From NCBI RefSeq assembly GCF_011045215.1, contig NZ_CP049201.1: DNA of 64,000 nt; one strand, written 5' to 3'. The position numbers and the translations under genes were made by a program. A model generated the notes under the pieces. That model was not told the DNA's origin and did not search any database. It saw only the letters and a program-made list of their open reading frames with translations. Below, piece after piece: positions 42,176-64,000 of this stretch (positions are counted from its first letter, which is position 1; every line of letters starts with the position of its first letter). The DNA comes from Escherichia coli. GTDB lineage: Bacteria > Pseudomonadota > Gammaproteobacteria > Enterobacterales > Enterobacteriaceae.

Positions 42176-42190
42176 CCGAATGAACGAATA

Positions 42191-43838: not shown

Positions 43839-43967
43839 GAGATTTCCTCCAGTTTCCTGCCTGGAGTATAGGCAACGGCTGCGCACTCTTCACCGCCAAA
43901 TTCAGCAGATTGCGAGACGCCTTCCAAAGAGATTTAAGTGCCGGGCGACAGGCACCCGGCAAAGAGA

Positions 43968-45182: not shown

Positions 45183-45267
45183 GCCGAAGTGGCGAAATCG
45201 GTAGACGCAGTTGATTCAAAATCAACCGTAGAAATACGTGCCGGTTCGAGTCCGGCCTTCGGCACCA
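45183..45267 (+). tRNA. leuX: tRNA-Leu (anticodon CAA)
   Basis: 85-nt sequence GCCGAAGTGGCGAAATCGGTAGACGCAGTTGATTCAAAATCAACC...GGTTCGAGTCCGGCCTTCGGCACCA; anticodon loop TTCAAAA; long variable arm; CCA end. Confidence 0.93.
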
Positions 45268-45456
45268 TAAAAAGCTTTTTTCAAGTCTACCAACGTCTAC
45301 TTTAGTCCATAAAAACAGTAAGTTAAGCAGAGTTTTGGCCTTTCTTAGTCTGTTCACGTCTACTTACTTCTATCCACATATACCAACGAATGATGGTATA
45401 ACTGGTGGTATCTTCGGTTCGATTGATTTTGATACCAACAGCGGAGGTATCAACTG

Positions 45457-46794: not shown

Positions 46795-47934
46795 ATGTCC
46801 ACAATTAACCCCGCAATTTTTTCTTTTTTCTCTGGTTCAGGATTTCTTGATCTTGGATTTGAAAAAAATGGTTATGAAGTGGTTTTCGTGAATGAATACC
46901 ATGCTCCGTTTATGGATGCATATAAACATTCGAGGAAAAAATTAAATATAGCACCACCTCGTTTTGGGTATGCAGAGTGCAGTATTGAAGATGTAGAACA
47001 TGAAAAAATTAAGTCTTCTATGCTTCAACTTAAAAATGAGGGGCGATTGACTGGATTTATTGGTGGTCCACCATGCCCGGATTTCTCTGTAGCGGGTAAA
47101 AATAAAGGTCGAGATGGTGAAAACGGTCGGCTTTCACAAAGCTATATTGATATCATTCTTGAAATGAAACCAGATTTCTTTCTTTTTGAGAATGTTAAAG
47201 GTCTATACCGTACCAGTAAACATAGGGAATTTTTTGACCATTTAAAAACTCAATTAGAATCGGTTGGTTATTGTTTGCATGAAAAACTAATAAATTCTAT
47301 TGAATATGGTGCTCCTCAAGATAGGCAACGAATCATATTGATTGGTTTCCTTGATGAAAAATATGCAAGCCAATTCAATTGGGGGCAAAGAGTCTACCCT
47401 GAAAGAACTGCATTTGAATATAAATGGCCGACGACAAACCAATTTTCAGAAAACACTTCTGTTATAAAACCAAAGGGTATCCCAGAAGAGTTAACAGTAG
47501 AGCATTGGTTCAAGAAAAACCAGGTTGATAATCATCCAAATGCAAAGCATGTATTCGCGGCAAGAGCAGGGCTTGCGAGGTTTTTGACTGTCGAAGAAGG
47601 GGATGATAGTAAAAAATCCTATAAAAGGTTACATAGATGGAGATTTTCACCAACTGCTGCTTACGGTAATAATGAGGTACATTTACATCCTTATAAACCA
47701 AGAAGAATTACTGTTGCCGAAGCATTAGCAATTCAGTCTTTACCAAAAGAATTTGAATTACCTGCTTATATGACTCTGTCTAATATGTTTAAAACTGTCG
47801 GTAACGGTGTACCCTACTTAGCAGCGGCCGGTATTGCCAAATCTATTATAGAGCATTTAGGAATCGAATATGAGAGTAACTGCGGCGAACTTAGCACAGG
47901 CGATTGCCAATCTACCAAGAAACACGCAGTTTAA
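46795..47934 (+). CDS. DNA (cytosine-5)-methyltransferase
   Basis: 379 aa with C5-MTase motifs: I FSGSGFLDLGFE (FxGxG), IV GGPPCPDFS (Pro-Cys), VI FLFENV, VIII QDRQR, X GNGVP near C-terminus; AT-rich. Confidence 0.85.
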   Translation: MSTINPAIFSFFSGSGFLDLGFEKNGYEVVFVNEYHAPFMDAYKHSRKKLNIAPPRFGYAECSIEDVEHEKIKSSMLQLKNEGRLTGFIGGPPCPDFSVAGKNKGRDGENGRLSQSYIDIILEMKPDFFLFENVKGLYRTSKHREFFDHLKTQLESVGYCLHEKLINSIEYGAPQDRQRIILIGFLDEKYASQFNWGQRVYPERTAFEYKWPTTNQFSENTSVIKPKGIPEELTVEHWFKKNQVDNHPNAKHVFAARAGLARFLTVEEGDDSKKSYKRLHRWRFSPTAAYGNNEVHLHPYKPRRITVAEALAIQSLPKEFELPAYMTLSNMFKTVGNGVPYLAAAGIAKSIIEHLGIEYESNCGELSTGDCQSTKKHAV

Positions 47935-48946
47935 TTATGTAAATGTGCGAAATTCGGGAAGAATCATTGTAACGAATGTTCAACTTCCCGAAGGCCCAAT
48001 AGAATTCAAAAGATTCGATCCAAAAAAGGGTGAGACACTGCATAGTTCTAAATCGGAAAGCATCTCCACACAAATGTTGTGGAGATTGGCTAATGCTTTA
48101 CAGGAAGATGTCCCTGTCAATTTGGATCGTATTTTTGGTGCAAGCTATAATACACGTGCTGTTCTCGAAAGCCTTTTGGCCCATACTCCTGAGTTTTATT
48201 GGTGTAAGCTTGATCGCCTTGAGGTAATGAACACTCAGAAAAATATTAAAAAAGGTCACAAGCACCTTATTTATAGACCAAATGACCCACATGAAAATGG
48301 TGTAGCAATAGAACATACTACTAATGTTATAATTTCTGAAATGAATTTAGATGTTGTCCATCAATCAGTTGATATAGAGACAATCTTACCTACTAAAGGA
48401 ATGACGATTGAGGAAAAAAGACGTCATGCACAAATTCAAATCTCATTAGTAAAAATAGGTCATTACTTAGGTTATCGGACATGGGTTGCAGCAAATGATC
48501 GTGGCCTCCAATATAATGGAAAATCTATAGCCCAAATGGATGGGGTCATAGATAATTTAAGAAATGAACAAGTGCTTCAATCATATGATAAAGCTATCAA
48601 AGAAGCTCGGCTTATAGATTGTATTTGGTTTCGAAATGGAAAATTAATGCCTGCAGTTATGGAGATTGAGCATAGCACTGGTATTAAAAGTGGTTTGGTA
48701 AGGATGAAACAATTTTATGATTATGCACCACAGTTAAAAAATATACGTTGGACCGTTGTGGCACCTGACGAATATAGAAATAAAGTTATAGAGTTTTCTA
48801 ATATGCCACAATTTAAAGAATTAGATACTCGATTCTTCCCCTATTCTGCTGTAGAGGAACTCTATTCATTATGTGCAAGAAGGAATCCTCAAGGAATTAC
48901 AGACGATTTCCTTGATGCATTCATGGAAAAGTGTGTGACACATTAA
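47870..48946 (+). CDS. Putative nuclease-like partner of the methyltransferase (candidate restriction endonuclease); function inferred
   Basis: 358-aa ORF; ATG with AGGA SD overlaps MTase 3' end by 65 nt (translational coupling); C-terminal D...E-x-E-x(6)-K-like stretch (LIDCIWF...VMEIEHSTGIK) compatible with a PD-(D/E)xK core. Confidence 0.45.
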   Translation: MRVTAANLAQAIANLPRNTQFNYVNVRNSGRIIVTNVQLPEGPIEFKRFDPKKGETLHSSKSESISTQMLWRLANALQEDVPVNLDRIFGASYNTRAVLESLLAHTPEFYWCKLDRLEVMNTQKNIKKGHKHLIYRPNDPHENGVAIEHTTNVIISEMNLDVVHQSVDIETILPTKGMTIEEKRRHAQIQISLVKIGHYLGYRTWVAANDRGLQYNGKSIAQMDGVIDNLRNEQVLQSYDKAIKEARLIDCIWFRNGKLMPAVMEIEHSTGIKSGLVRMKQFYDYAPQLKNIRWTVVAPDEYRNKVIEFSNMPQFKELDTRFFPYSAVEELYSLCARRNPQGITDDFLDAFMEKCVTH

Positions 48947-49083: not shown

Positions 49084-49893
49084 ATGAGAGTAATTAGCCC
49101 CTTTGAGGAATTGAAGAACTGGTTTAATCTTGATAACTATGAACCGATAAAATCGTTTACAATCAAGGAACTACATAGAGAGATTGTCTTTAGAGAAGCG
49201 ATTTTCGACAGTGTAAATTTTGGATGGGAAGATGATAATCAAAATTTAAGGTCTATCCTTGAAGGTAATCCTATTTTAAGCAGACAAGATAATAATCATG
49301 GTCATTTTGGCAAGGGCCAAAGACATGTTGCGCAGGTTAGCTTTGGTGATATAAAAAAATTAGAGAATAAGTTGATAATGTTTAGCATGGATTTTTTTGA
49401 AGAAAATGGTGATTTCAAAAAAGAGTTGAAAAAGAAACCAATAACAAAAACTATGAGAGACTTTTTTCTCAACAAAAATAGCAGCAAGATGTATGTATCA
49501 TTTGATTTGGGGTTATCTAGTGATGAGGAAATTATATCAGCCCTGCAAACTATGCTTCCAACTCTAAGGAAAGAATACGAGATTGACCCAGTAAAAACAG
49601 AAAAGATAGGGCTCGCAAAAATAAGAAAACTTGTCGATTACAACATTATTCCTATGATGGACTTACTAATTTGGTCAAAATTCAAAAAAGCAAAAATCTC
49701 AAATATGGTCTTGTCTCGTGTGTTGTATCCTGATTTCACTCACGAGATTAGAGGCGAAGATCACATTAAAGATACAGACAGGCCCATTGCTGAGAAGGCT
49801 TTAAATGGAGAGATAACTCGTAGTTTGGAGTACTTTCTTAGTAAAAACAGTCATCTCATCAACATACCGATTTCAGAACTCGGATCTCTCTAG
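49084..49893 (+). CDS. Hypothetical protein (269 aa), no recognisable motif
   Basis: Long AT-rich ORF, same strand as R-M-like pair. Confidence 0.55.
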   Translation: MRVISPFEELKNWFNLDNYEPIKSFTIKELHREIVFREAIFDSVNFGWEDDNQNLRSILEGNPILSRQDNNHGHFGKGQRHVAQVSFGDIKKLENKLIMFSMDFFEENGDFKKELKKKPITKTMRDFFLNKNSSKMYVSFDLGLSSDEEIISALQTMLPTLRKEYEIDPVKTEKIGLAKIRKLVDYNIIPMMDLLIWSKFKKAKISNMVLSRVLYPDFTHEIRGEDHIKDTDRPIAEKALNGEITRSLEYFLSKNSHLINIPISELGSL

Positions 49894-50058
49894 CTATAAA
49901 TCATCATGCAATTGTCAAGGGGATGGTGAAAATATTTTTCTTCCCCTAAATTTCTCTCCATTCTTTCCTCATCTAAATTTTCAGTTATCAGCACTCCCTT
50001 CATAGATACAAATCTGTGTGGCTAATATCTCCTTAACGGAAGCGGAGGAGACAGCCAA

Positions 50059-50265
50059 ATGAATACAACCAATCAAAGCTTAATTCGTTTACCAGAAGTC
50101 TTGAAACGAACTGGTTTCGGCAAGGCCTGGATCTATCGTCTGATCAGTGAAGGTCGGTTTCCGGCACCCGTTAAGATCGGAATTCGTGCCGTTGCTTTTG
50201 TCGAGAGTGAAGTTGACGAGTGGATTCTATCAGTTATCGAAACAAACAGAATTAAAGTTGCTTAA
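50059..50265 (+). CDS. alpA: AlpA-family transcriptional regulator / excisionase-like DNA-binding protein
   Basis: 68 aa; LIRLPEVLKRTGFGKAWIYRLISEGRFPAPVKIG...VAFVESEVDEWI matches the AlpA/MerR-like HTH of prophage CP4-57-type regulators. Confidence 0.85.
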   Translation: MNTTNQSLIRLPEVLKRTGFGKAWIYRLISEGRFPAPVKIGIRAVAFVESEVDEWILSVIETNRIKVA

Positions 50266-50286
50266 TTAAACCTAGGAGAGATTTTT

Positions 50287-50601
50287 ATGAATATCGAAGA
50301 ATTTATGAATGAAGAAAACCATATGTGCAATTTAGGCGAGGATCTTTTTTGCAAGATCTTCGAACCCGGAGCGATTTATGATTTGCCGAATAGCGATTTT
50401 AATAAAGAAATCATTTACTGGCTCAGTCAGTATCTTGTCGGAAATTTGAGACAACCTTTAGACGCGATCTCTGAGCTTGATATTTTCGAGCAGTTTTATG
50501 TTTACGAGACATGGTTCTCGCTAATTAAATGCCCAGATGAAATTAGAAATTTATCGAAACGGATAATTCGATATCAGATTGGGTTAAAAACCATTCTTTG
50601 A
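50287..50601 (+). CDS. Hypothetical protein (104 aa)
   Basis: ORF immediately downstream of alpA, 21-nt gap. Confidence 0.5.
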   Translation: MNIEEFMNEENHMCNLGEDLFCKIFEPGAIYDLPNSDFNKEIIYWLSQYLVGNLRQPLDAISELDIFEQFYVYETWFSLIKCPDEIRNLSKRIIRYQIGLKTIL

Positions 50602-50732
50602 AAGAACCTATATTTAGTACTATTTTGTAAATTGCATTGTTGAAATGATAGTGCTATTTGCTTTTTGATTTACAAAACATCTTTAACTTCTTTTAAAATA
50701 ATGGGTTAACTATTTTAAGTGAAAAGAAAGGA

Positions 50733-50762
50733 TTATAATATCCCTCTAGAGGGATATTATAA
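50733..50762. promoter_or_regulatory. 30-bp perfect palindrome upstream of the recombinase operon (candidate operator or recombination site)
   Basis: TTATAATATCCCTCTAGAGGGATATTATAA is perfectly self-complementary; lies about 130 bp upstream of the first recombinase gene in an AT-rich leader. Confidence 0.5.
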
Positions 50763-50893
50763 ATTTTCGGCCGGTATGCGTCATTGTAAAAGGGAATAAT
50801 ATTAAATTCAGGAAAATATATTTGTAAATTGCTTATGTTATATGCTTTATTTATTTTCACTGACAATTAAATGTAAATAGAGGCGATATTACT

Positions 50894-52156
50894 TTGAAAT
50901 ATAAAATAAAAAGATTGAAGAATAAAGATGGTATCAGAAGTTGCATTATTATTAATGAGAGCAACGGATTACCCTTGGTTTATTCTAACTTATATATGAG
51001 TGTTATTTCACGAACAAATAGCTATTCATTTTCAACAATGGAAGCAATAGCAAATGCTTTGCTTTTATTTGAAAGATATAATGCTTACATGAATGTGGAT
51101 GTTTTTGATATGGTAAATCCTGACATCGAAAAACTTGTCTCGAACAAAGGATATTTATTCGGGTTAATGAATGCCCTTTCTTACAGAAACGACTTAGAGA
51201 ATGTTACAAGCATTCTTAAAGAACAACATGTCTCTAAAAGAACCCTTTATTTCAAGATAATGACAATTGAAAATTACGTCAAATGGTTTTTTGATAACAT
51301 TGCTATCAATAATATTGATTCTTCTCGTTATGAAGCAATCAGTCGAGCATTTGATTTTATAAAGCCAAGAATAGAGAACGGAAAGAATTACAATATTGAA
51401 AGCGAAAGCAAATCATTGACAAATGAGCAAGTTACAACTTTGACTGATATGGTAAGTGTTAAATCTAAGATTAATCCATTTTCGGAGCATGTAAGGTTTC
51501 GAAATAATCTAATAATTAAAATTTTATTAGAGACAGGTATTAGGGGAGGGGAACTACTTAATATTAAGTTGGTTGATTTTGACTATGTCCACAAAAGTCT
51601 ATGCATAGTAAGAAGGCCAGATGATCAAAACGAACCACGATTAAGGCAACCATTGGTTAAAACTTTAGAAAGAAAAATACCATTGAGTATAGAATTGACT
51701 GAGTTAATACAGAATTATATTAGTGATTTCAGAGGTAAGCAGTGTCATGCAGGGGAGCATGACTATCTGCTTGTTACTCATAGCAGTAAAGGTCAATTAG
51801 GTCATGCATTAACTATTTCAGGTTATCAGAAAATTTTCGAACAAATTAGGAAAAATAGTAATGTTTTGAGCGATATTGTGGGGCATTCGCTAAGACATAC
51901 TTGGAATGTGAAATTCTCAGAAATGATGCTCATGAATTCGAACTCTCAGGAATATATTACTTATGAGAAAGTAAGAAATTATCTTATGGGGTGGAAAAAG
52001 AATAGTACAACCTCAGATATCTATAACCAAGCATTTATAGCACAAGAAAGCCGAAAAATAATGGCTGTTATTAATCCACTCAAAAACATAGTAGAGGACA
52101 AATCCAATGTTTCAAACTCTAAGAAAGCTACAAGAAAGTCAATATTCGGTTTTTGA
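50894..52156 (+). CDS. Tyrosine recombinase 1 of a three-recombinase operon
   Basis: 420-aa ORF (TTG at 50894; first ATG at 50996); conserved ETGIRGGELLNIKLVDF (box I Arg), HSLRHTW (HxxR) and ...SDIYNQ (Tyr) catalytic elements. Confidence 0.75.
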   Translation: MKYKIKRLKNKDGIRSCIIINESNGLPLVYSNLYMSVISRTNSYSFSTMEAIANALLLFERYNAYMNVDVFDMVNPDIEKLVSNKGYLFGLMNALSYRNDLENVTSILKEQHVSKRTLYFKIMTIENYVKWFFDNIAINNIDSSRYEAISRAFDFIKPRIENGKNYNIESESKSLTNEQVTTLTDMVSVKSKINPFSEHVRFRNNLIIKILLETGIRGGELLNIKLVDFDYVHKSLCIVRRPDDQNEPRLRQPLVKTLERKIPLSIELTELIQNYISDFRGKQCHAGEHDYLLVTHSSKGQLGHALTISGYQKIFEQIRKNSNVLSDIVGHSLRHTWNVKFSEMMLMNSNSQEYITYEKVRNYLMGWKKNSTTSDIYNQAFIAQESRKIMAVINPLKNIVEDKSNVSNSKKATRKSIFGF

Positions 52157-53432
52157 AACCAAGGATGGTAATTTCAAAGTGAACTTTTCTTATTCCAAGT
52201 GGAAGATAAGTGAAAGTATAACATTGAACATTGATTCTTTAAGAGTGGTCATCAGTGCATATATACCTATCAAAACCACTTTGGCATATTTCGCTATAAA
52301 TTATAGTGCCAGTTATACTAAGAAAATGTTTTATGCAGTAAAGCATTACATTAAGGCCTGTAATACGAATGATAGCTTGTTTTCTAAAGATTGCATAAAG
52401 TATTACTATAAAGTTGTGAGCTCATTAGATTACACACATGCAGAGACAGTCAAATATTTTTTTATGAAGATGAGTGGTCTTTACCCATCTTTGTTTTCGG
52501 CAGAAGCAATCATATTTTTAGAAAATATTAAAGTTAAAAAAACAAATGCAAACAAGTCTATAAAGACACATGATTATAAAAAAGGTCCCTTTAGTGACTC
52601 GCAATTAAAGGTAATTATAGATTCTGTAGCGATAGCTTATAAGGAAGAAAAGGTAAGTCTGTCAAACTATCTGCTAACCTTCCTTGTTGCATATTCCGGG
52701 CGGCGACCTATGCAAATATCTCAACTTGAAGCTGGTGATCTCTTTGCTTTTAATGGAGAGTACTTTCTCAATATCCCAAGAATTAAACAACGAAATGGAT
52801 ATAGAAAAGAGTTTAGAAAATTACAAATTCCAGAAGAGCTTTTTAGCCAATTGACATATCTCGTTGAAGCTGTGAATTCGCTGGTCAGTGACACATTAAA
52901 AATCGATTTAAGTGAAAAACAAAAGAGAAAACTACCAATTTTTATAAACACATATCCATTCAAAAAAGGATGTGTTGAGCTAAACATGATTGAAAGTGGT
53001 GGATTAAAACTTAACCCCTATGCCATAACACTAAAAATAAGGAACACTATAAATCGTTCAATAAATGAATATCAAGCCTATCTGGGGTGTATAAATTCGC
53101 GCAGATTTAGATATTCATTAGGCACTAAGGTTGCACAATTGGGTTATAGTCCTTCACTGATAGCAAATGTTTTGGACCATTCTTCAATCAATTCTGTTAT
53201 GAGTTATATAGAAAATACAGCGGAAAATGGCAAGAGAATTAATGAAGCTGTAAATGAACTAATGAAGCCACTGGCTAACAAATTTATTGAGGGAAAAGAG
53301 CTTCAGAAAGAGTTAGATTCTTTGAAGCATTTGATAGAAGAATACTGCGGTGGATATAAAACTAACTCTTTTGATAATACAGCAATATCGTTAGTAACTA
53401 ATTCTATCGACGATATGATCAATAGCATTTAA
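52107..53432 (+). CDS. Tyrosine recombinase 2 (divergent catalytic motifs)
   Basis: 441 aa; SD AGAGGA before ATG; AYSGRRPMQISQLEAGDL (box I), RRFRYSLG...LDHSSINSVMSYIE (box II-like with Tyr); overlaps upstream gene by 50 nt. Confidence 0.7.
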   Translation: MFQTLRKLQESQYSVFETKDGNFKVNFSYSKWKISESITLNIDSLRVVISAYIPIKTTLAYFAINYSASYTKKMFYAVKHYIKACNTNDSLFSKDCIKYYYKVVSSLDYTHAETVKYFFMKMSGLYPSLFSAEAIIFLENIKVKKTNANKSIKTHDYKKGPFSDSQLKVIIDSVAIAYKEEKVSLSNYLLTFLVAYSGRRPMQISQLEAGDLFAFNGEYFLNIPRIKQRNGYRKEFRKLQIPEELFSQLTYLVEAVNSLVSDTLKIDLSEKQKRKLPIFINTYPFKKGCVELNMIESGGLKLNPYAITLKIRNTINRSINEYQAYLGCINSRRFRYSLGTKVAQLGYSPSLIANVLDHSSINSVMSYIENTAENGKRINEAVNELMKPLANKFIEGKELQKELDSLKHLIEEYCGGYKTNSFDNTAISLVTNSIDDMINSI

Positions 53433-53447
53433 AAGAAGGATAAAGTG

Positions 53448-55052
53448 ATGAAAGAAATCCATGATAAAATGATTAATAACTTCATTATCGCTAATAAGGC
53501 CCATGCGAAAAATTTTGGAAATTTTGAGTGGGATAATTCAAGTTGGGGAGGCGGAATTACATTTTTTAGCGGAATCAAGGTTAGAATGGGGAACAAGAAT
53601 AAGAAATTAATGAATTATAACATTGCAGAGTTCGCAAAAGCATATGTATGGCATGAGTGCTTTCATGATTTATCTGTAGCTTTCAGAGTGCTGAGATTAT
53701 TTAGGATATTAGAAATTGCCATAGGTAAAACAAATAAAGAAGTTAAGATTTCAAGTATAGATCATAAAGTATTAGATGAAGTTATGACTATTGTTCAAGA
53801 AAATTTTGCAATATCCACTTCTTATAAAATATATTTAGATCTTAGGGTATTATGTTCTTTTATGTCTAAGAACGAAATGTTGCCAGAATCCATTACACGA
53901 TGGTCATATCCATTTAAGGCATATGATGCTTACACAAATAGCACAATGGATTCGATGGGAAATTTATCCAATCAGAAAAAACTTCCTGATGAAAAGGCTA
54001 TAGATTTTATTGGTAAAATATTTAGCTCTAATCCAGTTAATGAAAGGGATATATTTACATCTTCTATTTTTGCATTGCTCTTATGTGCTCCATCTCGAAT
54101 TAGTGAAATTATGCTTTTAGAAGAGGACTGTGAAGTTATAGTTGAAGATAGTAATGGCATATCAAGATATGGTTTGCGATTTCTTTCTCTGAAGGGCTTT
54201 GGATACAATACCAAATGGATTCCAGACTGTATGGTTTCTGTAGCTTCAAAGGCTATCATGCGATTGAAAAAACTTACAAGGAATGCAAGGGTTGTTTCTC
54301 GGTTAATAAAAGCAGGGGAAATTAATTTATACGAGTCATTAAACAAAAGTGCGTTTGATTGTTTAACAATTGAAGATCTCCACAAACTTGGCTTTGTTAT
54401 AAATCAATTAAATATCTCCCAAGAAAATCTAAAATTCTTGGCTAAGATAAAACATGGTACAGTCAGTGTAAAAGCATTTTGGATTTATATAGAGCGAAAG
54501 AATGTTAATTCTGAAAATATTAATGCTAATTTATGCTCCATAAATCATAATTTATTGGACTCTATCAAGGGTGCTGATATTTTTACAACAATTAAGGCAT
54601 CTTCAAAGTATTTTAGAGCGGATTTTCGCACCGATAATATGAATAACATATTTCATAGGAATATACATTTTAACTGTGATGGTTCTGTTTTAATTTTCCG
54701 CAGCCATCAAATTAGACATTTACTTAATACTATAGCTCAACGAAGCGTATTGTCAGAGATACAAATTGCCCAATGGTCTGGGAGAAGGAGTGTTAAGCAG
54801 AATTCAGTATATGATCATATGTCTCACAACGAGTTATCAGAACTATCAAGGAAACTATTGAACGGAAACACCTACGAAGAAACAAAAATTTCAGCATCTT
54901 CATTTAATGAACAATCGATTATTATGAATTTGATTAAAGATAAATTTGAAAAACTAGAATTAAAAATCCAAAATTCAGATCCAAGAAAAAGAAAATATAT
55001 TCTGGAAAAAATTAAAGATTTAAGATTGGAAATTGAATACATATTAATGTGA
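53448..55052 (+). CDS. Tyrosine recombinase 3
   Basis: About 534 aa (GTG-ATG at 53445/53448); CAPSRISEIMLLEEDC (box I), HQIRHLLNTIAQ (HxxRH), ...SVYDHMSHNE (Tyr). Confidence 0.7.
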   Translation: MKEIHDKMINNFIIANKAHAKNFGNFEWDNSSWGGGITFFSGIKVRMGNKNKKLMNYNIAEFAKAYVWHECFHDLSVAFRVLRLFRILEIAIGKTNKEVKISSIDHKVLDEVMTIVQENFAISTSYKIYLDLRVLCSFMSKNEMLPESITRWSYPFKAYDAYTNSTMDSMGNLSNQKKLPDEKAIDFIGKIFSSNPVNERDIFTSSIFALLLCAPSRISEIMLLEEDCEVIVEDSNGISRYGLRFLSLKGFGYNTKWIPDCMVSVASKAIMRLKKLTRNARVVSRLIKAGEINLYESLNKSAFDCLTIEDLHKLGFVINQLNISQENLKFLAKIKHGTVSVKAFWIYIERKNVNSENINANLCSINHNLLDSIKGADIFTTIKASSKYFRADFRTDNMNNIFHRNIHFNCDGSVLIFRSHQIRHLLNTIAQRSVLSEIQIAQWSGRRSVKQNSVYDHMSHNELSELSRKLLNGNTYEETKISASSFNEQSIIMNLIKDKFEKLELKIQNSDPRKRKYILEKIKDLRLEIEYILM

Positions 55053-55061
55053 GGAGATTAT

Positions 55062-55460
55062 ATGGCAAGAAAGTTTTATGATAAAGAAATAAAAGCTATT
55101 GTTAAACTTATTGAAACCTGGAGTAAGCCTGATTTCACTTGGGATTCTTTATGCGTGGCTTGCAAAAAAATTTTAGGTAAAGTACCTACACGGCAAGCAT
55201 TAAGCCAGCATAGTGAGATTGTCGTTGCGTATAGGACCAGAAAAAGATCTGGTATGGTTAAACGTCAAAATACGAAGTTACCCGGTAGCCTGAGCCTTGC
55301 GGCGAAAAGAATAGAACGACTTGAAAATGATAATTCGGCACTAAAATATGAAAATAATAATTTACTGCTTATGATTCAAAGAATGCACGAAAATGCTTAC
55401 AGGCATAATATATTGGCTTCTATTCTTGAAGAAGAATTTCCACAGAGAGCAAGAAAATAA
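55062..55460 (+). CDS. Small basic protein, fourth gene of the recombinase operon (possible DNA-binding accessory factor)
   Basis: 132 aa, starts 9 nt after recombinase 3; Lys/Arg-rich with predicted coiled-coil C-terminus. Confidence 0.55.
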   Translation: MARKFYDKEIKAIVKLIETWSKPDFTWDSLCVACKKILGKVPTRQALSQHSEIVVAYRTRKRSGMVKRQNTKLPGSLSLAAKRIERLENDNSALKYENNNLLLMIQRMHENAYRHNILASILEEEFPQRARK

Positions 55461-56023: not shown

Positions 56024-56287
56024 TTAATAACTTCCTACTTGCCAGCCATCATCTGATTTTATTAATTTAACTGTTCCAGCTTGCTTTGTTCCGCTCATAT
56101 CCATAATTATATTGCACTTATAGCTTTTATCAGATTCTTTTGTGCAATCTACTTTTTTTACTGAAGTCAGATAGCTTCCAGTCCATTTTCGCATAGCTTT
56201 AAAAATATCATCTTGGGAAGGCTCACTACTACATGCAGTAAGAAGAAATACGGAAATAATAACAGCAAGGACCGAAGATATTTTCAT
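56024..56287 (-). CDS. Small lipoprotein
   Basis: 87 aa; signal peptide with lipobox LLTAC. Confidence 0.6.
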   Translation of the reverse strand: MKISSVLAVIISVFLLTACSSEPSQDDIFKAMRKWTGSYLTSVKKVDCTKESDKSYKCNIIMDMSGTKQAGTVKLIKSDDGWQVGSY

Positions 56288-56311
56288 TAGACTTAATCCT
56301 GATTAAGTATG

Positions 56312-56698
56312 TTACTGAAAAATGCCAGATTTTGTATTATTATTATCAGTAGAGAATGTCCATTTGCTGACAATTTCGCCTTTAAAATCTATTTCAAGAG
56401 TTTTGGACTGAGTCTGTGAACCACCAGTTAGTAGCCCAACTACAGGAATGAAAGTCGAGGCATTGAACTGATTGTTATACATAAAATATCTCCATTGCTC
56501 GTTGCCATCATCAAGAGTCGTTCTTGTATCTGGTTCACCTAACTTAGCGAGTAGCTCGTTCTTAGTAGTCTTGTTTTTAATGATCTTTGACTGAAGACTT
56601 TGTGCAGTTTCATTTTCAATTTGTTGGTTCCCGGATGTTGAGCAGCCAGAAATTAAAAATATTGCAATGAAAAAGGCGGTAACAATAGATTTATTCAT
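56312..56698 (-). CDS. Lipoprotein
   Basis: 128 aa; signal peptide with lipobox LISGC. Confidence 0.6.
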   Translation of the reverse strand: MNKSIVTAFFIAIFLISGCSTSGNQQIENETAQSLQSKIIKNKTTKNELLAKLGEPDTRTTLDDGNEQWRYFMYNNQFNASTFIPVVGLLTGGSQTQSKTLEIDFKGEIVSKWTFSTDNNNTKSGIFQ

Positions 56699-56727
56699 TC
56701 TATCTTCCTTATTATATTTGGTCAGGG

Positions 56728-57006
56728 TTAACTTTTATGTGTGAAAACGGCTCTGTGGGCAAATTTCTTGCGTAAATAAAATCTTAAAGAAATTGCTGAG
56801 GCAAAATAGATAACGACAGTTAATATAAAACTTTGACTGATAGCGAATATGAAGAAAGCAATTACTAACAGCACAATTCCTATGAGTAAAGCTAACCAGG
56901 CCGAAGGTTCACCATAATTTATTGTTGCGTGACAGCCGATACAGACACGAACTCCGAACGGACTCTCTTTGAAGCAGAACGGGCACTTAATGGTCTCTTT
57001 ACTCAT
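56728..57006 (-). CDS. Small membrane protein with N-terminal zinc-ribbon
   Basis: 92 aa; CPFC...CIGCH then one hydrophobic helix. Confidence 0.5.
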   Translation of the reverse strand: MSKETIKCPFCFKESPFGVRVCIGCHATINYGEPSAWLALLIGIVLLVIAFFIFAISQSFILTVVIYFASAISLRFYLRKKFAHRAVFTHKS

Positions 57007-57259
57007 ACAAACTCCGTTTATTCAACAGGTTCCTGATACTACAAATTGTTTAAAAATCATCAGGTTCTTTTCAGGGATTCTCGATGAATAATTATCTTTA
57101 GTAAAATCACTTGTACCGATCGATGTTTGAATCATGATAGGTAAAAACTATCATAACTAGATTATCGATCTGTATTAACGATCAATAATTTCTTGACATA
57201 ATATAAATTAGTTACTGTATAGTTAAGAGTGTTTGAGAATAATCAATACAAGTAATTGT

Positions 57260-58405
57260 CTATAAACGAATTTTTATCGCCTTGTTTAAAGGTTTCATTG
57301 CGTAGATATTTGAGAAGGTCGTGTGTGTTTTGTGAAGAATGGTCTTACCAAAGCTTCTCAGAAGCTCGATGTAATGCTTTATGGAAGCAAGCCACTCTAC
57401 GAATCTGAGATGCTTTTGCCGTTGTACTGCATTTTTTTGAAGAATCTTTCCTACGATTTCGTTTCGTTTGTCTTCTCTAAGCCGTAATTCCAGTTCTGCA
57501 ATTTTTTCAACGATACTTTCCTTTCTCTCAGTGGTTTTCAACACTGTTGCAGGAGCAGGAGCAGCAGGTTGGTCTTTTGTCGATATGTCGCTTCGTAGAG
57601 CTTCTAAGTGGTCGGGGTTGTAGTTAAGCCGATTACTGAGATTTGCCCAGGAGTAGCTCTTGCCCAATTGTGAAGCTTTGAAAGCTATGCCTGTGTATTC
57701 GAAAGAGAAGCCGTTCATTTTACCGGTAGAGGCAATATTGGCCTTCCAAGATACTTCAGCTTCTTCCAGCCTCTTGATAAAAGTTAGAAGGTCCGGCTTA
57801 TCAGATAAACTTTTATCAAGTATCTGCTGCAGAGCTTCTCTTGGTGAAAGCACCCCGGTTCGTTCCGATAGCATTTTCTCATTACGGGACACTCTCTTCC
57901 GCTTCGGTTGTGCTTGCGAGGGGGGAGATGCAGTTTTGGTCACTGTCAGGCCATGAGCGATTTCGAGTTTACTGATGATCTGTGTGCTGATGAGGTTTTC
58001 GTTCCTACCCAAGTAGAGCTTCCCACCATTGAGATCTATGCGACTTGCGATAATGTGTATGTGCTGGCCATCGTCGTCATGAAGCACATAGCAACGAAGG
58101 TGAGTATCCCTGAACCCCATCCTCTTCATGTAGTCATCTGCGATAATGGACCACTGTTCATTCGTTAGTGTTTCACCGTCGGGTAAGCGAAGTGAGTTGT
58201 GCCAAACGGGTTTTGCGACATCTAGGCGAAGATGCTTGGTGCTATCGAATTCAGCGATCATTTCAACGGCTGAATCACTTAACATGTTCCCGCCAATGAC
58301 GACTGGATCGCTTTTGTGGTGTGCTCCCGATTGTAATACATAACGAACAACACCAGCGAAGCTCTTACCCCTCTTGATCTTCCGCATACCCTTCACGAGG
58401 GACAC
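57260..58405 (-). CDS. Mobilisation relaxase (MobA/VirD2-like nuclease domain)
   Basis: 381 aa; three-histidine relaxase motif HDDDGQHIHIIASRIDL; immediately downstream of a MobC-like gene. Confidence 0.75.
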   Translation of the reverse strand: MSLVKGMRKIKRGKSFAGVVRYVLQSGAHHKSDPVVIGGNMLSDSAVEMIAEFDSTKHLRLDVAKPVWHNSLRLPDGETLTNEQWSIIADDYMKRMGFRDTHLRCYVLHDDDGQHIHIIASRIDLNGGKLYLGRNENLISTQIISKLEIAHGLTVTKTASPPSQAQPKRKRVSRNEKMLSERTGVLSPREALQQILDKSLSDKPDLLTFIKRLEEAEVSWKANIASTGKMNGFSFEYTGIAFKASQLGKSYSWANLSNRLNYNPDHLEALRSDISTKDQPAAPAPATVLKTTERKESIVEKIAELELRLREDKRNEIVGKILQKNAVQRQKHLRFVEWLASIKHYIELLRSFGKTILHKTHTTFSNIYAMKPLNKAIKIRL

Positions 58406-58739
58406 TCCAAAAATCTGTTCTTAACAAGTTGTGACGAAGCTCTTCAAGTTGTCGCTTCACAGCGAAAAGCTCTGTATGAGTAAGCTGGCTATCTTTACTC
58501 TTACTGTCGATATGGAGAGCAATACGATTCAACTTTTGTGATATGTCAGACAATTTTTTCCAGGCTTCAGTATTAATTGTCGGTACTACTGGTGGCAGGT
58601 TTTGCAGAAATGACATGCGGAGCCATTCACCTTTACTTTTATTACCTCGTTTTATATTTAAAATCTGTAATTCATTGTTGTTGAGTCGAACACTTATACA
58701 ATGTATTCTAATTCTGTCATCTAATCTTAATTTAGCCAT
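58365..58739 (-). CDS. MobC-family relaxosome accessory protein
   Basis: 124 aa; overlaps relaxase start by 41 nt; sequence pattern typical of MobC. Confidence 0.65.
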   Translation of the reverse strand: MAKLRLDDRIRIHCISVRLNNNELQILNIKRGNKSKGEWLRMSFLQNLPPVVPTINTEAWKKLSDISQKLNRIALHIDSKSKDSQLTHTELFAVKRQLEELRHNLLRTDFWSVPREGYAEDQEG

Positions 58740-58885
58740 ATAAGTTCCTTTTATATGATTTAATATGATTAATGATAGTTATTATTTCCCATTAGTCAAT
58801 AGCAGAACGGTTTTGATATATGGGTTTAATGTGCTAAAAATAAATCTCTCTGAAATAAAGTATTCAAAGATTCCCTAAATTAAAA
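58740..58885 (-). promoter_or_regulatory. Candidate oriT / mob promoter region (inferred from position only)
   Basis: AT-rich 146-bp gap upstream of mobC with short direct repeats (ATATGATT TAAT ATGATT AATGAT). Confidence 0.3.
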
Positions 58886-60049
58886 TTAAGGATGATCTAT
58901 TGAAACAAACTTTTGACTAAACTCCAGCCATCTTGCATTATCAACATCCTTCACAAAAGCAATCAGACCTGCGACATGATTGTAAAAGCCAATTGGAGAG
59001 TCAAATTTTTCATGTCTTGCAACTTCTGAGAGACCAAATTTTTTTATTGAGTAAAGGTGGCGTTCAATACGTTTATAAGTTTGTTTAGATAATCGAGGGA
59101 CATTGCCATCAACAAGTAATCCTAAAACTATTTTTTTTGAACCAGGTCCAGCTACTCTTATTTTGCTTACGTTTTCTTTGAAATGGTGCTTACGAATGAT
59201 GCTGATAATGTTATTTTGTATTTTTCCAACCGAAACACCGTCGGGTAGAGTACCACCGCAGGATAATGTTATATCATCAGCATATCGAGTATAAGTGAAG
59301 CCATATTTATTAGCATATTCAGATAGAGAAATATCTAACTTTACAGTGGCTAAATTACTAAGCATTGGGCTACTCGGTGCCCCTTGAGGTAGCACTCCTA
59401 ACGGCCATGGTTCTGATATGTCCCAAAAAAGGCTCTTCTCTTTATTTTGTCCGTAAAGCTTATATTCCTTAGTTGAGTGCTTAGGAACAGAAATTAGAGA
59501 TTGTAAATGTTGTGGTAAACGTATAGTTGTGCATAGCCTTGATAGTTCAAATGCTATTAATGGCCGATATCCAGCATTTTTAAAAACCATATAAACATCA
59601 GATTCATTTATTGAATAAAAGAAATCGGAAATGTCGAATTGGAAGAGCCATTTAGCACCACAATGCTGTTCTGCACATTTTCTGATGCCACCATTAGGAT
59701 GGAAAGCAAAAGAAGTATTATGGGGAACTAACTTTTTTAATATTTCACTATTGATGAAATGCTGTACTTTAAATATCTCGCCAGTTACAGCATGAATATG
59801 GCGTCTTCCACCTGAACGTTTTTTTATAGCAAACATGCGATAATTTGCTGATTCACGGCGGCGTGATACAGTGGATCGTAGCAAGCGATAATCAACACCA
59901 GTAATTTTTGAAAGATGGCGTAATGTAAAAATTACAGGGAGATTATTTTTCTTCAGATTACTTGCATAATTTCTTAAGTTTAGAGCCTGTGTCTTCCCTA
60001 AGGATGACTCTGCATTTTGATAAAGTTGGTGTGCTGACCAGATTTCCAT
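58886..60049 (-). CDS. Retron-type reverse transcriptase
   Basis: 387 aa; RT motifs FQFDISDFF (A), LPQGAPSSP (B'), YTRYADDITLS (C); by-eye alignment to remembered retron Ec86 RT (QGAPSSP.LANL...YTRYADDLTLS, IDLEDFFPS); C-terminal VLGLLV in place of the retron VTG. Confidence 0.85.
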   Translation of the reverse strand: MEIWSAHQLYQNAESSLGKTQALNLRNYASNLKKNNLPVIFTLRHLSKITGVDYRLLRSTVSRRRESANYRMFAIKKRSGGRRHIHAVTGEIFKVQHFINSEILKKLVPHNTSFAFHPNGGIRKCAEQHCGAKWLFQFDISDFFYSINESDVYMVFKNAGYRPLIAFELSRLCTTIRLPQHLQSLISVPKHSTKEYKLYGQNKEKSLFWDISEPWPLGVLPQGAPSSPMLSNLATVKLDISLSEYANKYGFTYTRYADDITLSCGGTLPDGVSVGKIQNNIISIIRKHHFKENVSKIRVAGPGSKKIVLGLLVDGNVPRLSKQTYKRIERHLYSIKKFGLSEVARHEKFDSPIGFYNHVAGLIAFVKDVDNARWLEFSQKFVSIDHP

Positions 60050-60237
60050 TCACCTATCCTTTGAGCCCAGGGGGCCATCAGTGTCATACATTTTCCGAGT
60101 CCTCGATGGCCGTTAATGTATGACATTGAAGGGCGGCGTAGCCGCCTTTGCGTCAGATCTTTCCAGAGATGTTTCTCCAACATCCCCATCCGTTGTAACA
60201 AAAGCCACAACAGATTCTGTCAAACAAGCGGTGAACT
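60050..60237 (-). ncRNA. Candidate structured ncRNA (possible retron msr-msd-like template) in the PRTase-RT spacer
   Basis: 188-nt non-coding spacer directly upstream of the RT; 15-bp stem (60078-60092 pairs with 60115-60129, one G-U) with 22-nt loop; adjacent GGCGGC-GTA-GCCGCC hairpin (60132-60146). Confidence 0.4.
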
Positions 60238-61458
60238 TCACTCATCATTGTTTAACGGCTGAACGGAGTGCTGATCAGCACACCAAGACTCTGGAATGTA
60301 AAGACCAAAATCCCATACACTATCGTTTTTAACATGCCTAGAATTTACAAGTATGTCAAGTCCGAATTTAGATAATCGTTTTTGAGTTGTCAATAGTCCT
60401 AATGTCTCTGCATATATGAGTAGTTTTTCTACATACGAACAATCAACATTCAAACGTAAGGCAATGCTTTTGTTATCTCTGACACCTCTTTTTATAAGTT
60501 TTAGTAAATTTATAATTTCGGGAGATAAAGATGAATGGGGGGAAGTGTTATGCTTTGTTCCATTTTCTAACAAGGCAAGCAGCCATCCTGGAATTGCTCT
60601 ATCAGGCATTAGTCCTTGCCATTTTTTATTAGAAAACCATAGTATTCCAGGAAGGTTATTAGGGACGCTATGATAAAAAATTATATTAGATAAAACATTA
60701 CCATAGCCAAGACGAGCCCATGGAGGAATTTTGGTTTGATTTTTACAAAGATTGATTATTTCATTATACTGCTCACCCCACCGAGTTTCTAACCAATTTT
60801 CATTATATACGATGTTACTTATGAAATTGATTTTTTCAGATTTTCTATATTTTCTTACTCCATGGTCTGAGCCGCGAATAGTATTGATTATTCTATTTTC
60901 AGAACCTAGTGTTCTGGCGAAAGAAATTAAAGTTAATCTTACTAGTCCTAAACTCCACCAACTTAAAAAGGTAGGGTTATCGAGCATGGCATTAATAAAT
61001 CCGGATACTCTATCACCACTACCAATCGAATCATCAATAAGTAAAAAATCGTTGACTTTAGATTTTTTCAGATCATTGAGTGATGGATGATCTAAAAACA
61101 TAGTTTTATTAGACCGCACAAGGTTTGAAATAATTGAATATACTAAGTCTTCGCTACCTTGCGAATGACCTGGTCTATTAACAACATCACCATTAAGGTC
61201 CCATAATACTTGTTTGTCTGGATCTAATTTGCGAACTGAATAAAGGGCATAATTTTTATTTTTTGGTAAATCAGAAATGCTCTTTTGAAGCCATATGGTA
61301 AACTCATCTCTACTTACAAAAGTTAACTTGCTCAAGATGTTTTTTGCAATCGCTTTTTGGCTGCTATTAAATTGCATAAGCCATTGAGCTATTTCCTGAG
61401 AGGATTCAATTTTTTCTACTGAAAGTATTTTAAATTTAGGTTTGTCTCTTGTTTTCAT
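60238..61458 (-). CDS. Phosphoribosyltransferase-like protein (putative RT-associated effector)
   Basis: 406 aa; PRPP-binding-like motif KVNDFLLIDDSIGSGDR (hydrophobic strand, DD, small-Gly); encoded immediately upstream of and co-directional with the RT. Confidence 0.55.
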   Translation of the reverse strand: MKTRDKPKFKILSVEKIESSQEIAQWLMQFNSSQKAIAKNILSKLTFVSRDEFTIWLQKSISDLPKNKNYALYSVRKLDPDKQVLWDLNGDVVNRPGHSQGSEDLVYSIISNLVRSNKTMFLDHPSLNDLKKSKVNDFLLIDDSIGSGDRVSGFINAMLDNPTFLSWWSLGLVRLTLISFARTLGSENRIINTIRGSDHGVRKYRKSEKINFISNIVYNENWLETRWGEQYNEIINLCKNQTKIPPWARLGYGNVLSNIIFYHSVPNNLPGILWFSNKKWQGLMPDRAIPGWLLALLENGTKHNTSPHSSLSPEIINLLKLIKRGVRDNKSIALRLNVDCSYVEKLLIYAETLGLLTTQKRLSKFGLDILVNSRHVKNDSVWDFGLYIPESWCADQHSVQPLNNDE

Positions 61459-61693: not shown

Positions 61694-62296
61694 TTATTCA
61701 TATGATTTGTATTTCTTTTCATCTACTAAATTTATTATGGACGATGAGGTTTTATATATCAACTTTACATTGTGTAAAGATATATTGTGTTTGCTAATAA
61801 AATATAAAAGATCCAATAGCATCTGTTCTTGCCGTTCTTGTGGAAACTCTAATTTTACGATTGGAGTAAATTCAACAATAAAACCACTATTCAACAGTAG
61901 TTTTATGTAGCTAAATGAGTTTGGCGTAACTGTTTTGATTTTTATTATTTTATTAGTAATTAGATGCTTATGGTTTATAATAATGTGAGGGTTGAGCAGT
62001 GCCATATCATATGACATGAATGTTAAACCATGACTATCTATTATGTTCAAGTCGATACCAAGTTGTATAAACATATCGATTATTGCTTTGCTATGTATCC
62101 AGTTATAAAATAAAGGTGTCCTTCCATAGTTATCTAAATGATTTAGGTCGGCTCCTGCAGCTAAAAGAGATGTTGTAAGTAAATAGTCATTAGAATAAAA
62201 TAATGGTGTACGACCACAATTATCCTTTAAGTTTATTAAACCATTGTCTATGAATATATTAGATAAATTATTGTGCATTTTACCTCCTTTTATCAT
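61694..62296 (-). CDS. Ankyrin-repeat protein
   Basis: 200-aa ORF; two clear ankyrin repeats (GRTPLFYS...LLAAGADLNHLDNYGRTPLFY) plus degenerate third (DSHGLTFMS). Confidence 0.6.
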   Translation of the reverse strand: MIKGGKMHNNLSNIFIDNGLINLKDNCGRTPLFYSNDYLLTTSLLAAGADLNHLDNYGRTPLFYNWIHSKAIIDMFIQLGIDLNIIDSHGLTFMSYDMALLNPHIIINHKHLITNKIIKIKTVTPNSFSYIKLLLNSGFIVEFTPIVKLEFPQERQEQMLLDLLYFISKHNISLHNVKLIYKTSSSIINLVDEKKYKSYE

Positions 62297-62643: not shown

Positions 62644-63519
62644 TTATAAATGATCTCCAATGTGAGCAATAGCGATTTGTGCCGGTCTATCAGGAATTCT
62701 ATTAAAGAAGCCAAAGTATATTCTATTGTAGTAATAAGTTCCTTTTCGATTAGTATTGTCCATGTATTCAAGTTTATAATGGAATTCACAATTCACGTCT
62801 TTATAGATACAATCACCCACTTTAAAATCACGTTTTAATTCCCCTATGGCTCGTTTATTTTTGCCTCCACCTTCTGGTGTTACAAGATAAGGTAACGATG
62901 AATTCATAATTCTAATGTTATGTTGTGAGTCATTAGGTATAATTGTATAGTTATTAACAAAATAAAGAAATTCAGTGATGCTTTTCAAAAAATTTTCATA
63001 TCCACCTTCAATTTTCCTAATAAAATTAAAGGTTTGTGGTGGGTTATCCAAAAAAATGACATTCTTGAAAATGTTTTTAATATTGTCAGCATATTCATCA
63101 CAATCCGATGGGAATTCATCAAGGATTTTCTTAGAAAGATCAATTATTTCACTTTCACTAGAAACTGTATTATCCTTTTTTAAAGGTATGTCTGGAGATT
63201 GATAGGCACAGAGTTTTCTTTCGGCAAGTATCGATGGGGATGTATTGATGATATTTAGAAGTTCATTGCAGCCTATTTCATCCAATAAACTAATTTGGCC
63301 TATTTTATAATACTCATTAACAAGGCCACCGTAATCAGGGTTTGTTGAAAATAATTTAGTGACAAATTTTCCATCAAATTCATTGGAGCGAAGAAACTTT
63401 ATAAAATCTGAATCCACTCTCTCTACAAGTGCTTTAAGATCTTTAATCTGGTTAAAAATCTTAATTTGTTCTTCTTCAAGAGAAAAACTATCTATGAACA
63501 AGCAAACACCTGCTTTCAT
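62644..63519 (-). CDS. Hypothetical protein, partner of upstream ATPase (possible degenerate HNH-like nuclease)
   Basis: 291 aa; starts 9 nt after the ATPase gene stop; C-terminal C-x6-C-x2-H-x9-N-x10-N segment (DCIYKDVNCEFHYKLEYMDNTNRKGTYYYNRIY) loosely HNH-like. Confidence 0.5.
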   Translation of the reverse strand: MKAGVCLFIDSFSLEEEQIKIFNQIKDLKALVERVDSDFIKFLRSNEFDGKFVTKLFSTNPDYGGLVNEYYKIGQISLLDEIGCNELLNIINTSPSILAERKLCAYQSPDIPLKKDNTVSSESEIIDLSKKILDEFPSDCDEYADNIKNIFKNVIFLDNPPQTFNFIRKIEGGYENFLKSITEFLYFVNNYTIIPNDSQHNIRIMNSSLPYLVTPEGGGKNKRAIGELKRDFKVGDCIYKDVNCEFHYKLEYMDNTNRKGTYYYNRIYFGFFNRIPDRPAQIAIAHIGDHL

Positions 63520-63528
63520 GAAATCCCC

Positions 63529-64000
63529 TTAATTTTCAATATCAGGAGTATTAAATGATCCTGTCATAATGGTATACATATCAATTGATTGCTGGTCAAA
63601 GAATCCTTTCGGCCAACTAGAAAGTTTTCCATCTTTGCCAATAGATATCTTTTCTGCAGTAGATTCATTATTCTCATGTGAAATATAAAATAACGAAATT
63701 AGCTCAGGTGAAAAGTCAGGAGATGTTCTTGCTACGACACGGATTCCGTTGAGAAGGTGATCGCTATGAGTTTCTATGAATACCTGTACTCCCGCTTGAG
63801 CAGTGTAAGCTATTAATCTACCCATATAGCTTTGTCCTCTAGGGTGCAAATGGGCTTCCGGGTTTTCTAAAACTACTAATTCGCCCGGTTTTGCTAAAAG
63901 TAATGCTGAAACAATACTCAAAGCATAGCTATAACCAAAACCAATGTTTTTGGGTTTAGTTTGTTTTCCTGACTCAGCCTGTATTGTGTTATAAGCAATG
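63529..64000 (-). CDS. ABC/AAA15-type ATPase, C-terminal part (DUF3696-like); 5' end beyond window
   Basis: Frame open to window edge (ORF-track 'M' is TTG); ...GFGYSYALSIVSALLLAKPGELVVLENPEAHLHP (signature/Walker B/D-loop) and FIETHSDHLL (H-loop). Confidence 0.7.
   Translation of the reverse strand, partial: IAYNTIQAESGKQTKPKNIGFGYSYALSIVSALLLAKPGELVVLENPEAHLHPRGQSYMGRLIAYTAQAGVQVFIETHSDHLLNGIRVVARTSPDFSPELISLFYISHENNESTAEKISIGKDGKLSSWPKGFFDQQSIDMYTIMTGSFNTPDIEN

Follow-up and report, generated by a model that had tools for sequence, protein, structure and literature searches.

GInt-type genomic islands have been described as putatively non-mobilizable, and no relaxase is mentioned in the GInt papers (PMC5385486, PMC10214605). 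In a survey of E. coli defence islands, GInts were counted among the islands with an unclear mobilisation mechanism, and the cargo of E. coli GInts was found to be anti-phage systems (PMC10121019). The EARL islands (ROD21 and ICEKp258.2) occupy tRNA sites and carry a P4-type integrase gene, AlpA and DUF6387 genes, a relaxase gene, and defence-type cargo (PMC10763509). Here, we analysed 64,000 nucleotides (nt) of an E. coli chromosome (NZ_CP049201.1; hereafter, the window), in which a relaxase gene and an overlapping accessory gene lie in a GInt-type island that starts at leuX. The first-pass annotation of the window had proposed that this pair may make the island mobilisable and had placed a candidate origin of transfer (oriT) in the AT-rich stretch upstream of the accessory gene (mobC). 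Our analysis bore out the two genes but not the oriT. On balance, we consider it probable that the region 57260–58739 is a complete relaxosome module in a GInt-type island backbone with the architecture of an integrative mobilisable element.

The relaxase open reading frame (ORF) encodes 381 amino acid residues from the GTG at 58405 and 378 residues from the family-consensus start, the GTG at 58396 (MKGM...). The latter is likely the start of the protein, as its relatives begin with MKGM, and residue numbers are counted from this codon (Y19 corresponds to Y22 from the GTG at 58405). The protein matched PF03432 (MobA/VirD2-like nuclease) with an E-value of 1.3e-23 and a score of 84.2 bits against a cut-off of 24.6, and residues 22–153 spanned the whole 132-position model. 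In an alignment of 24 family sequences, including the MOBP-typed MobA of pGNB2, Y19, H66, S68, H106, H112, and H114 were invariant. The three-histidine motif reported by the first-pass annotation was identified as HDDDGQHIH (H106, H112, and H114), which has the form H-x5-H-x-H, and a second conserved block, NIASTGKMNGFSF...FKASQLGK, was found in the family alignment. Y19 would, by its position, be the catalytic tyrosine. The relaxase is not truncated, because its length of 378–381 residues falls inside the family range of 365–460 residues; hence, neither of the two defects that had been named as grounds for rejection, truncation and a missing tyrosine, was found.

The nearest MOB-typed plasmid relative was the MobA of the IncQ2 plasmid pGNB2 (MOBP), with about 42% identity across 65% of the query. 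The NF041893 model (TraI_MobP) aligned with residues 9–324 (316 residues) with an E-value of 3e-18, and its score of 65.9 bits was under the 250-bit equivalog cut-off. We therefore call the relaxase MOBP-like only through its nearest typed relative and do not file it as an NF041893 equivalog. In an AlphaFold2 (AF2) model with a pLDDT of 80 overall and about 90 in the N-terminal domain, the sole significant fold match in the PDB was 2NS6, the minimal relaxase of R1162 MobA (E 6e-4, probability 1.00); a sequence search of the relaxase against the PDB gave no match. A dipeptide repeat, Pro-Ala or, in the relative L002, Pro-Val, forms the linker that joins the conserved part to the C-terminal helices (about 57490–57530; alignment columns 300–350). 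With a highly variable length, from a few Pro-Ala units in the window to over 15 in L014, L018, and L019, this linker has the look of a spacer prone to slippage.

The accessory gene encodes 124 residues and overlaps the start of the relaxase gene by 32–41 nt. The window protein alone gave a weak match to the NikA-like family (E 0.008; 16.7 bits against a gathering threshold of 27) and no match to MobC. At the family level, NikA-like PF21983 was matched by 11 of 25 members (best E 2.9e-10) and MobC PF05713 by 2 of 25, and the window protein was 34% identical to the annotated MobC of pGNB2, in agreement with the overlapping MobC-like gene seen in the first-pass annotation. The conserved core of the family, HC(I/V)SVRLN..EL..LN, fits the N-terminus of a ribbon-helix-helix protein; a fold search with an AF2 monomer model of the accessory protein gave no significant match. 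The ratio of nonsynonymous to synonymous substitution rates (Ka/Ks) was 0.17–0.20 for the relaxase gene among the window, L001 (the island of E. coli DETEC-S792), L005, and L008, and 0.09–0.23 for the accessory gene, which indicates that both genes evolve under purifying selection.

Of 5426 complete E. coli genomes, 130 had similar DNA, in every case on the chromosome. The relaxase protein had relatives at 37 loci spread over Enterobacterales, with Enterobacter, Citrobacter, Pectobacterium, Pantoea, Erwinia, Yersinia, Photorhabdus, and Salmonella diarizonae among the hosts. Wherever enough flanking sequence was available for these 37 loci, the pair adjoined a three-recombinase GInt core with a small fourth gene. 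In the window, PF00589 was matched by the first two recombinases with E-values of 9.6e-17 and 1.2e-6, respectively, and no Pfam match was obtained for the third or for the fourth protein, which is GinD-like and consists of 132 residues. The absence of PF00589 in the third protein agrees with the published account of GinC as lacking catalytic motifs. The ginABCD-like proteins were 27–43% identical (blastp E <1e-4) to E. coli proteins listed as ginC-ginD blocks, and their homology to GinA–D is indirect, through these E. coli proteins rather than the Pseudomonas reference proteins. Additional file 10 of Idola 2023, a ginC-ginD synteny list, contains these E. coli counterparts and includes our record L007. 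Two GInt loci taken from the published list and not from the relaxase search, those of E. coli IAI1 and ETEC H10407, had the relaxase pair in the same position, and the overall layout of the IAI1 island was the same as that of the window.

Genes for a type IV secretion system (T4SS) or a coupling protein (T4CP) were absent among the ORFs at 45.3–64 kb, the visible part of an island inside which the window ends, and also from the annotated island of the relative L005, up to a degenerate second integrase gene. Since no mating-pore or coupling-protein genes were visible, any transfer would need a helper. The island has genes for its own integration and excision, namely the P4-type integrase gene beside tRNA-Leu, an AlpA-like gene, and the GInt cassette. 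The integrative mobilisable element architecture suggested earlier is thus supported by an intact pair under selection, its synteny with the recombinase trio, the IAI1 and H10407 loci, and the lack of a visible T4SS or T4CP; from these we infer that the module mobilises the island.

In this reading, the module belongs to a backbone conserved across a lineage of enterobacterial GInt-type islands: a P4-type integrase gene at leuX or ssrA; DUF6387, AlpA, and one small gene; ginABCD; a further small gene; an envelope operon; the relaxase gene; and the accessory gene. A variable anti-phage cargo starts directly upstream of the accessory gene. The MOBP-like HUH relaxase would nick one strand at its cognate oriT through Tyr19, with the metal held by H106, H112, and H114; the NikA/MobC-like accessory protein, translated from the overlapping upstream gene, would act as a small DNA-binding protein; and a co-resident conjugative element would supply the transfer machinery. 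A helper plasmid could probably mobilise the island. At E. coli hotspots, leuX and ssrA among them, much of the anti-phage defence cargo resides in GInt-type islands, and the pair beside the GInt core offers a testable route for their movement, mobilisation by co-resident conjugative plasmids.

The main role of the same relaxase might instead be to initiate rolling-circle replication of the island once it has been excised as a circle, and not to transfer it from cell to cell. Relaxase-driven replication of an excised element is known for NicK of ICEBs1, and homologous plasmid relaxases such as that of pGNB2 are fused to primase or replication domains. GInts excise as circles (PMC5385486), and a copy-out-like route has been proposed for the related SE elements (PMC10214605). 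However, no primase or helicase partner is encoded nearby, a ribbon-helix-helix accessory gene paired with a relaxase gene is the standard arrangement for mobilisation, and a role in replication would be compatible with transfer. We regard a mainly replicative role as quite improbable and mobilisation as the better account of the pair.

Several findings weigh against mobilisation. No GInt transfer has been demonstrated (PMC5385486), the scores of the relaxase against NCBIfam equivalog models were far under the cut-offs, two plasmid records with related relaxases were typed as non-mobilizable by MOB-suite, and the window stops inside the island, with the distal genes unseen. No oriT was located in the part of the island within the window. 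None of five nic cores (the IncP/IncI/Ti, R1162, ColE1, F, and R388 types) was matched in either non-coding region flanking the module within the mismatch limits used, the region upstream of mobC was not conserved in relatives, and the window lacked an inverted repeat, GCATAnGGAnnTGC, that 23 of 39 loci have some 45 nt upstream of mobC. The two records typed by MOB-suite (via PLSDB) were OX345050.1 and NZ_CP118679.1, whose relaxases were 47–49% identical to that of the window. This relaxase subfamily seems to lie outside the MOB-suite typing database, and OX345050, a linear record of 3.6 kb, is perhaps not a plasmid but a mislabelled contig from a chromosomal island. The non-mobilizable typing may be one reason why the subfamily was overlooked.

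The region upstream of mobC (58740–58885) bears directly on the oriT proposed by the first-pass annotation. The AT-rich stretch with short direct repeats is present, with a G+C content of 24% and one pair of the 8-mer ATATGATT, but such a repeat occurred at chance level (within 30 nt in 14% of shuffles and anywhere in 44%), and repeat-finding in this region reported no direct-repeat family. In classical MOBP and MOBQ systems (RP4, R64, and RSF1010), oriT lies beside the promoter of the accessory gene, and an oriT in these 146 bp, as in IncP, IncI, and IncQ systems, would agree with the promoter-like site located here, the best one in the scan, and with the conserved dyad that encloses the ribosome-binding site. 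In most relatives with the upstream region inspected, TTGACA and, after it, a TATAAA-like hexamer stood at the same place, and the hairpin with the Shine-Dalgarno sequence in its loop had the same fold in most of 25 distinct relatives, with the loop-adjacent pair varying among G:C, C:G, and A:T. These motifs were seen only after the sequences were anchored on the start codon, a MAFFT alignment of the upstream regions having been uninformative. However, homology to most relatives ended near the mobC start, and the sequence 5′ of the hairpin was common only to relatives with the same retron, continuing in two E. coli genomes. The hairpin overlaps the translation signals, for which a leader structure would be the simpler explanation. 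An oriT at this place is unlikely in view of the unconserved cargo junction, the missing nic cores, the chance-level repeat, and the missing inverted repeat. Judged from its sequence, 58740–58885 holds a promoter and a leader where the backbone meets the cargo and is not a conserved cis site, and an oriT should not be assigned to the AT-rich stretch in annotation.

The inverted repeat GCATAnGGAnnTGC was considered as the oriT of the family and rejected as an essential site. It was absent in 16 of 39 loci, and the relaxase had a Ka/Ks of about 0.17–0.2 among the repeat-less window, L001, L005, and L008; therefore, it is unlikely to be essential. These observations also bear on whether the module is a cis-defective remnant, with intact proteins whose cognate oriT was lost when the retron cargo replaced the native region upstream of mobC, leaving the island immobile. 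The absence of the repeat from both the window and L001, which have the retron junction in common, agrees with such a loss, whereas the many loci that do without the repeat, the selection retained among four of them, and the position of the repeat at the predicted 5′ end of the mRNA with GGA in a loop, which suits a leader or operator, argue in the other direction. A defective remnant appears improbable, if slightly less so than an oriT on either side of the module. In L007, L014, L018, L019, L023, L025–L037, and others, 23 of 39 relatives in all, the mobC mRNA carries the hairpin AGCATAnGGAnTATGCT, with GGA in the loop, at its predicted 5′ end, and the Shine-Dalgarno-loop hairpin follows about 25–30 nt downstream. 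Two hairpins with GGA in the loop upstream of mobC presumably resemble a CsrA/RsmA-type binding leader; equally, the AGCATAnGGAnTATGCT repeat could be an operator for the accessory protein.

On the other side of the module, directly 3′ of the relaxase gene, lies a block (57085–57197) that was found at this position in about 34 Enterobacterales loci and is the only universally conserved non-coding block. The three GATC sites and ATAG/CTAT of the dyad were near-invariant across about 40 sequences, and the N7 spacer varied freely. In L002, the block was 85% identical to that of the window, with a relaxase only 49% identical. An oriT at this block, with the large imperfect palindrome as the relaxosome binding site and nic in the flank GGTACAAGTGATTT, would account for a conservation that exceeds that of the proteins and for the 27-nt inverted arms. 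The flank also resembles the R1162 sequence CGGTAAGTG.

The conserved features of the block were, however, all accounted for by the layout of a gtr-type OxyR/Dam switch, namely symmetric GATC sites, ATAG-N7-CTAT with a free spacer, and GATT at the position equivalent to GATC4. The offsets of the sites from the dyad centre were −37.5, −24.5, and +24.5 for GATC and +37.5 for GATT, compared with −38.5, −25.5, +25.5, and +38.5 in P22 gtr. The central dyad agreed with the OxyR dimer consensus, ATAGnTnnnAnCTAT (PMC2909390), at each of its 10 specified positions. The global identity between the block and P22 gtr was 68%, and 14 of 2000 shuffles scored as well; since MAFFT put P22 gtr in the wrong register, offset measurement and pairwise alignment were used instead. 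A search of the block in a phage collection gave no match. A related block was found in the same orientation about 140 bp upstream of the fimbrial gene f17A on E. coli plasmids, with no relaxase among the annotated neighbours, and an OxyR site has been demonstrated in the related promoter of the Ucl fimbriae (PMC9236248). Moreover, the stretch that separates the central dyad from the next conserved block was variable, although a nic site would be expected there, at a distance of about 8 nt from the repeat. An oriT in the block is doubtful at best, and the idea that it was the better oriT candidate was dropped after the f17A-upstream relative and the gtr geometry had been found.

We read the block as a putative Dam/OxyR phase-variation promoter of an envelope operon and not as an oriT. 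It was followed by a membrane-protein or lipoprotein gene on the same strand in all six relatives inspected. Of the three small products encoded downstream in the window, the one of 92 residues combines a CxxC...CxxC N-terminus with a hydrophobic stretch, and the 128- and 87-residue products have lipoprotein-like signal sequences (L(I/T)(S/A)GC/AC); all three are putative envelope proteins. The promoter proposed for these genes, read from the sequence and the alignment, was absent from the listing of the sigma-70 consensus scan. Its position would fit the gtr geometry, in which the dyad centre lies about 70 nt upstream of the transcription start site (PMC2909390).

Taken further, enterobacterial GInt islands, at present taken for recombinase-only elements that lack a known way between cells, may be relaxase-equipped mobilisable elements with a gtr-type phase switch between the relaxase gene and the envelope operon, an extension that we put forward tentatively and with clearly less confidence than the relaxosome module itself. 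If it holds, the envelope operon could encode entry exclusion or masking of phage receptors, only a subpopulation would express the surface functions of the island and possibly transfer-related functions too, and an epigenetically phase-variable locus would be added to GInt islands.

The positions of the features are listed below.

Table. Features of the leuX island in the window, in order of position.
Feature	Position	Strand	Description
tRNA-Leu(CAA) gene (leuX)	45183–45267	+	ARAGORN; island start and insertion site
P4-type integrase gene	45457–46707	+	Arm-DNA-bind_3, Phage_int_M, and Phage_integrase domains; adjoins leuX
C5 cytosine methyltransferase gene and overlapping 358-residue ORF	46795–48946		No Pfam match for the 358-residue ORF
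DUF6387 gene, AlpA-like helix-turn-helix gene (50059–50265), 104-residue gene	49084–50601	+	PF19924 E 2e-74
GInt-type cassette (three recombinase or recombinase-like genes and a 132-residue gene)	50894–55460 (50894–52156, 52107–53432, 53445–55052, 55062–55460)	+	PF00589 in the first two
Three small putative envelope-protein genes	56024–57006	−	92-, 128-, and 87-residue products; no Pfam or PADLOC match
Putative envelope-gene promoter	57077–57105	−	−35 TTTACT 57100–57105; −10 GAGAAT 57077–57082
Conserved non-coding block	57085–57197	−	Read as gtr-type OxyR/Dam switch
GATT pseudo-site	57105–57108		GATC4-equivalent position
GATC sites in block	57180–57183, 57167–57170, 57118–57121
Dyad	57135–57153		TGATAG-N7-CTATCA
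Relaxase gene	57260–58405	−	MOBP-like HUH nuclease; PF03432
Relaxosome accessory gene (mobC)	58365–58739	−	NikA/MobC-like, ribbon-helix-helix type, from family-level matches
Shine-Dalgarno hairpin	58737–58757	−	CATATAA-AAGGAAC-TTATATG; Shine-Dalgarno in loop, start codon in 3′ arm
Direct repeat ATATGATT, two copies	58753–58760 and 58763–58770		Period 10
Promoter-like site for mobC and relaxase genes	58772–58799	−	TTGACT-16 nt-TATCAT; best sigma-70 match in 56900–59000, 10/12
Type III-A retron	58886–61458	−	Reverse transcriptase (RT) 58886–60049; phosphoribosyltransferase (PRTase)-winged helix-turn-helix protein 60238–61458; abuts mobC

The chromosomal flank at 40000–45300 was 99.1% identical to lptF-lptG-yjgR-ahr-leuX, and the G+C content of the island was 35% against 51%. 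The island extends beyond the end of the window, and no attR repeat of the tRNA 3′ end was found in a search within the 64 kb. The genes at 49084–50601 belong to the backbone common to relatives, with 87–88% nucleotide identity to L005 and L006. Relative to these two loci, the methyltransferase gene and the 358-residue ORF, a possible restriction enzyme partner of the methyltransferase, form an insertion between the integrase and DUF6387 genes, and the same insertion was found in E. coli IAI1. The ginABCD cassette (50604–55453) had only 27–43% protein identity to its closest E. coli relatives, compared with 77–91% nucleotide identity for the flanking backbone, and homology broke at 50603, near the end of the 104-residue gene, and at 55454, near the end of the ginD-like gene. 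The cassette looks to have been swapped as a unit, and these breaks do not look like element ends, which in GInts are marked by direct repeats of 10–11 nt; the right end lies outside the 64 kb. A gene for a 145-residue protein lies between the recombinase cassette and the envelope genes. From the envelope genes onward, the order is relaxase gene, accessory gene, retron, ankyrin-repeat gene, and NsnC/NsnB-like genes.

The retron was assigned by PADLOC as RT_III-A (E 5.6e-160) and PRTase_III-A (E 2e-93), with RVT_1 and PRTase-CE domains. The 188-nt gap at 60050–60237 is the likely place of its non-coding RNA; an Rfam scan of 56–62 kb gave only a chance miRNA match and no retron RNA family. The ankyrin-repeat gene (61694–62296; 359–1306 in L002 and 19453–20037 in L005) is a recurring part of the cargo a short way upstream of mobC in several islands that otherwise differ. 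The defence genes at 62644–63921 on the minus strand were NsnC-like (E 6e-94) and NsnB-like (E 1e-46; DUF3696/AAA). The NsnB-like match covers positions 226–343 of the 345-position model, and the listed ORF may be incomplete. The leuX island of E. coli IAI1 likewise has a DUF3696 gene after its cargo.

The pair resembles the MobC-MobA system of the IncQ2 plasmid pGNB2 in that the relaxase gene overlaps at its 5′ end with a small accessory gene and in that the relaxase domains are 35–43% identical, with the same invariant Tyr, WH.S, H-x5-H-x-H, and NGFSF...FK.S.LGK block. Unlike in pGNB2, the relaxase of the window has no fused primase domain (378 versus about 813 residues), and its module is chromosomal, in a tRNA-site island. 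No similarity to the pGNB2 locus was found in the non-coding flanks of the window module, and pGNB2 therefore points to no oriT in the window. As in the MOBP systems R64 NikA-NikB and RP4 TraJ-TraI, the accessory family matches the NikA-like Pfam family, and residues 9–324 of the relaxase can be aligned with the TraI/MobA(P) model. The relaxase differs from theirs by its score (65.9 against 250 bits) and its length, which is half or less, and neither of the non-coding regions that flank the window module contains the YATCCTGY nic core.

The block 3′ of the relaxase gene shares with P22 gtr a central ATAG-N7-CTAT half-site flanked by half-sites bearing GATC, with GATC offsets that agree within 1 bp and two GATC sites 13 nt apart in the window block. 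Like the OxyR/Dam switches of P22 gtr, opvAB, and agn43, it stands upstream of surface-related genes on horizontally acquired DNA. It has three GATC sites and a GATT in place of four GATC sites, is 68% identical, and precedes genes for uncharacterised small envelope proteins; the gtr switch was characterised experimentally, whereas the window block is known here from its sequence.

The window island has the same tRNA site type, P4-type integrase, AlpA and DUF6387 genes, relaxase, and defence-type cargo as the EARL islands, but EARL islands lack the recombinase trio and have a MOBQ relaxase of 506 residues together with TraD and genes for a type IV pilus. With the GInts (Bardaji 2017, Idola 2023), it shares three consecutive recombinase or recombinase-like genes and a small fourth gene, followed by cargo of the anti-phage kind. 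In contrast to the published GInts, which were reported without a relaxase, the Enterobacterales loci examined have the relaxase-accessory pair following the core, and the window unit stands beside a P4-type integrase gene at a tRNA/tmRNA gene. This kind of element is already known; what is modestly new is the consistent link between the relaxase and the GInt core in Enterobacterales, together with a gtr-like switch beside the relaxase gene.

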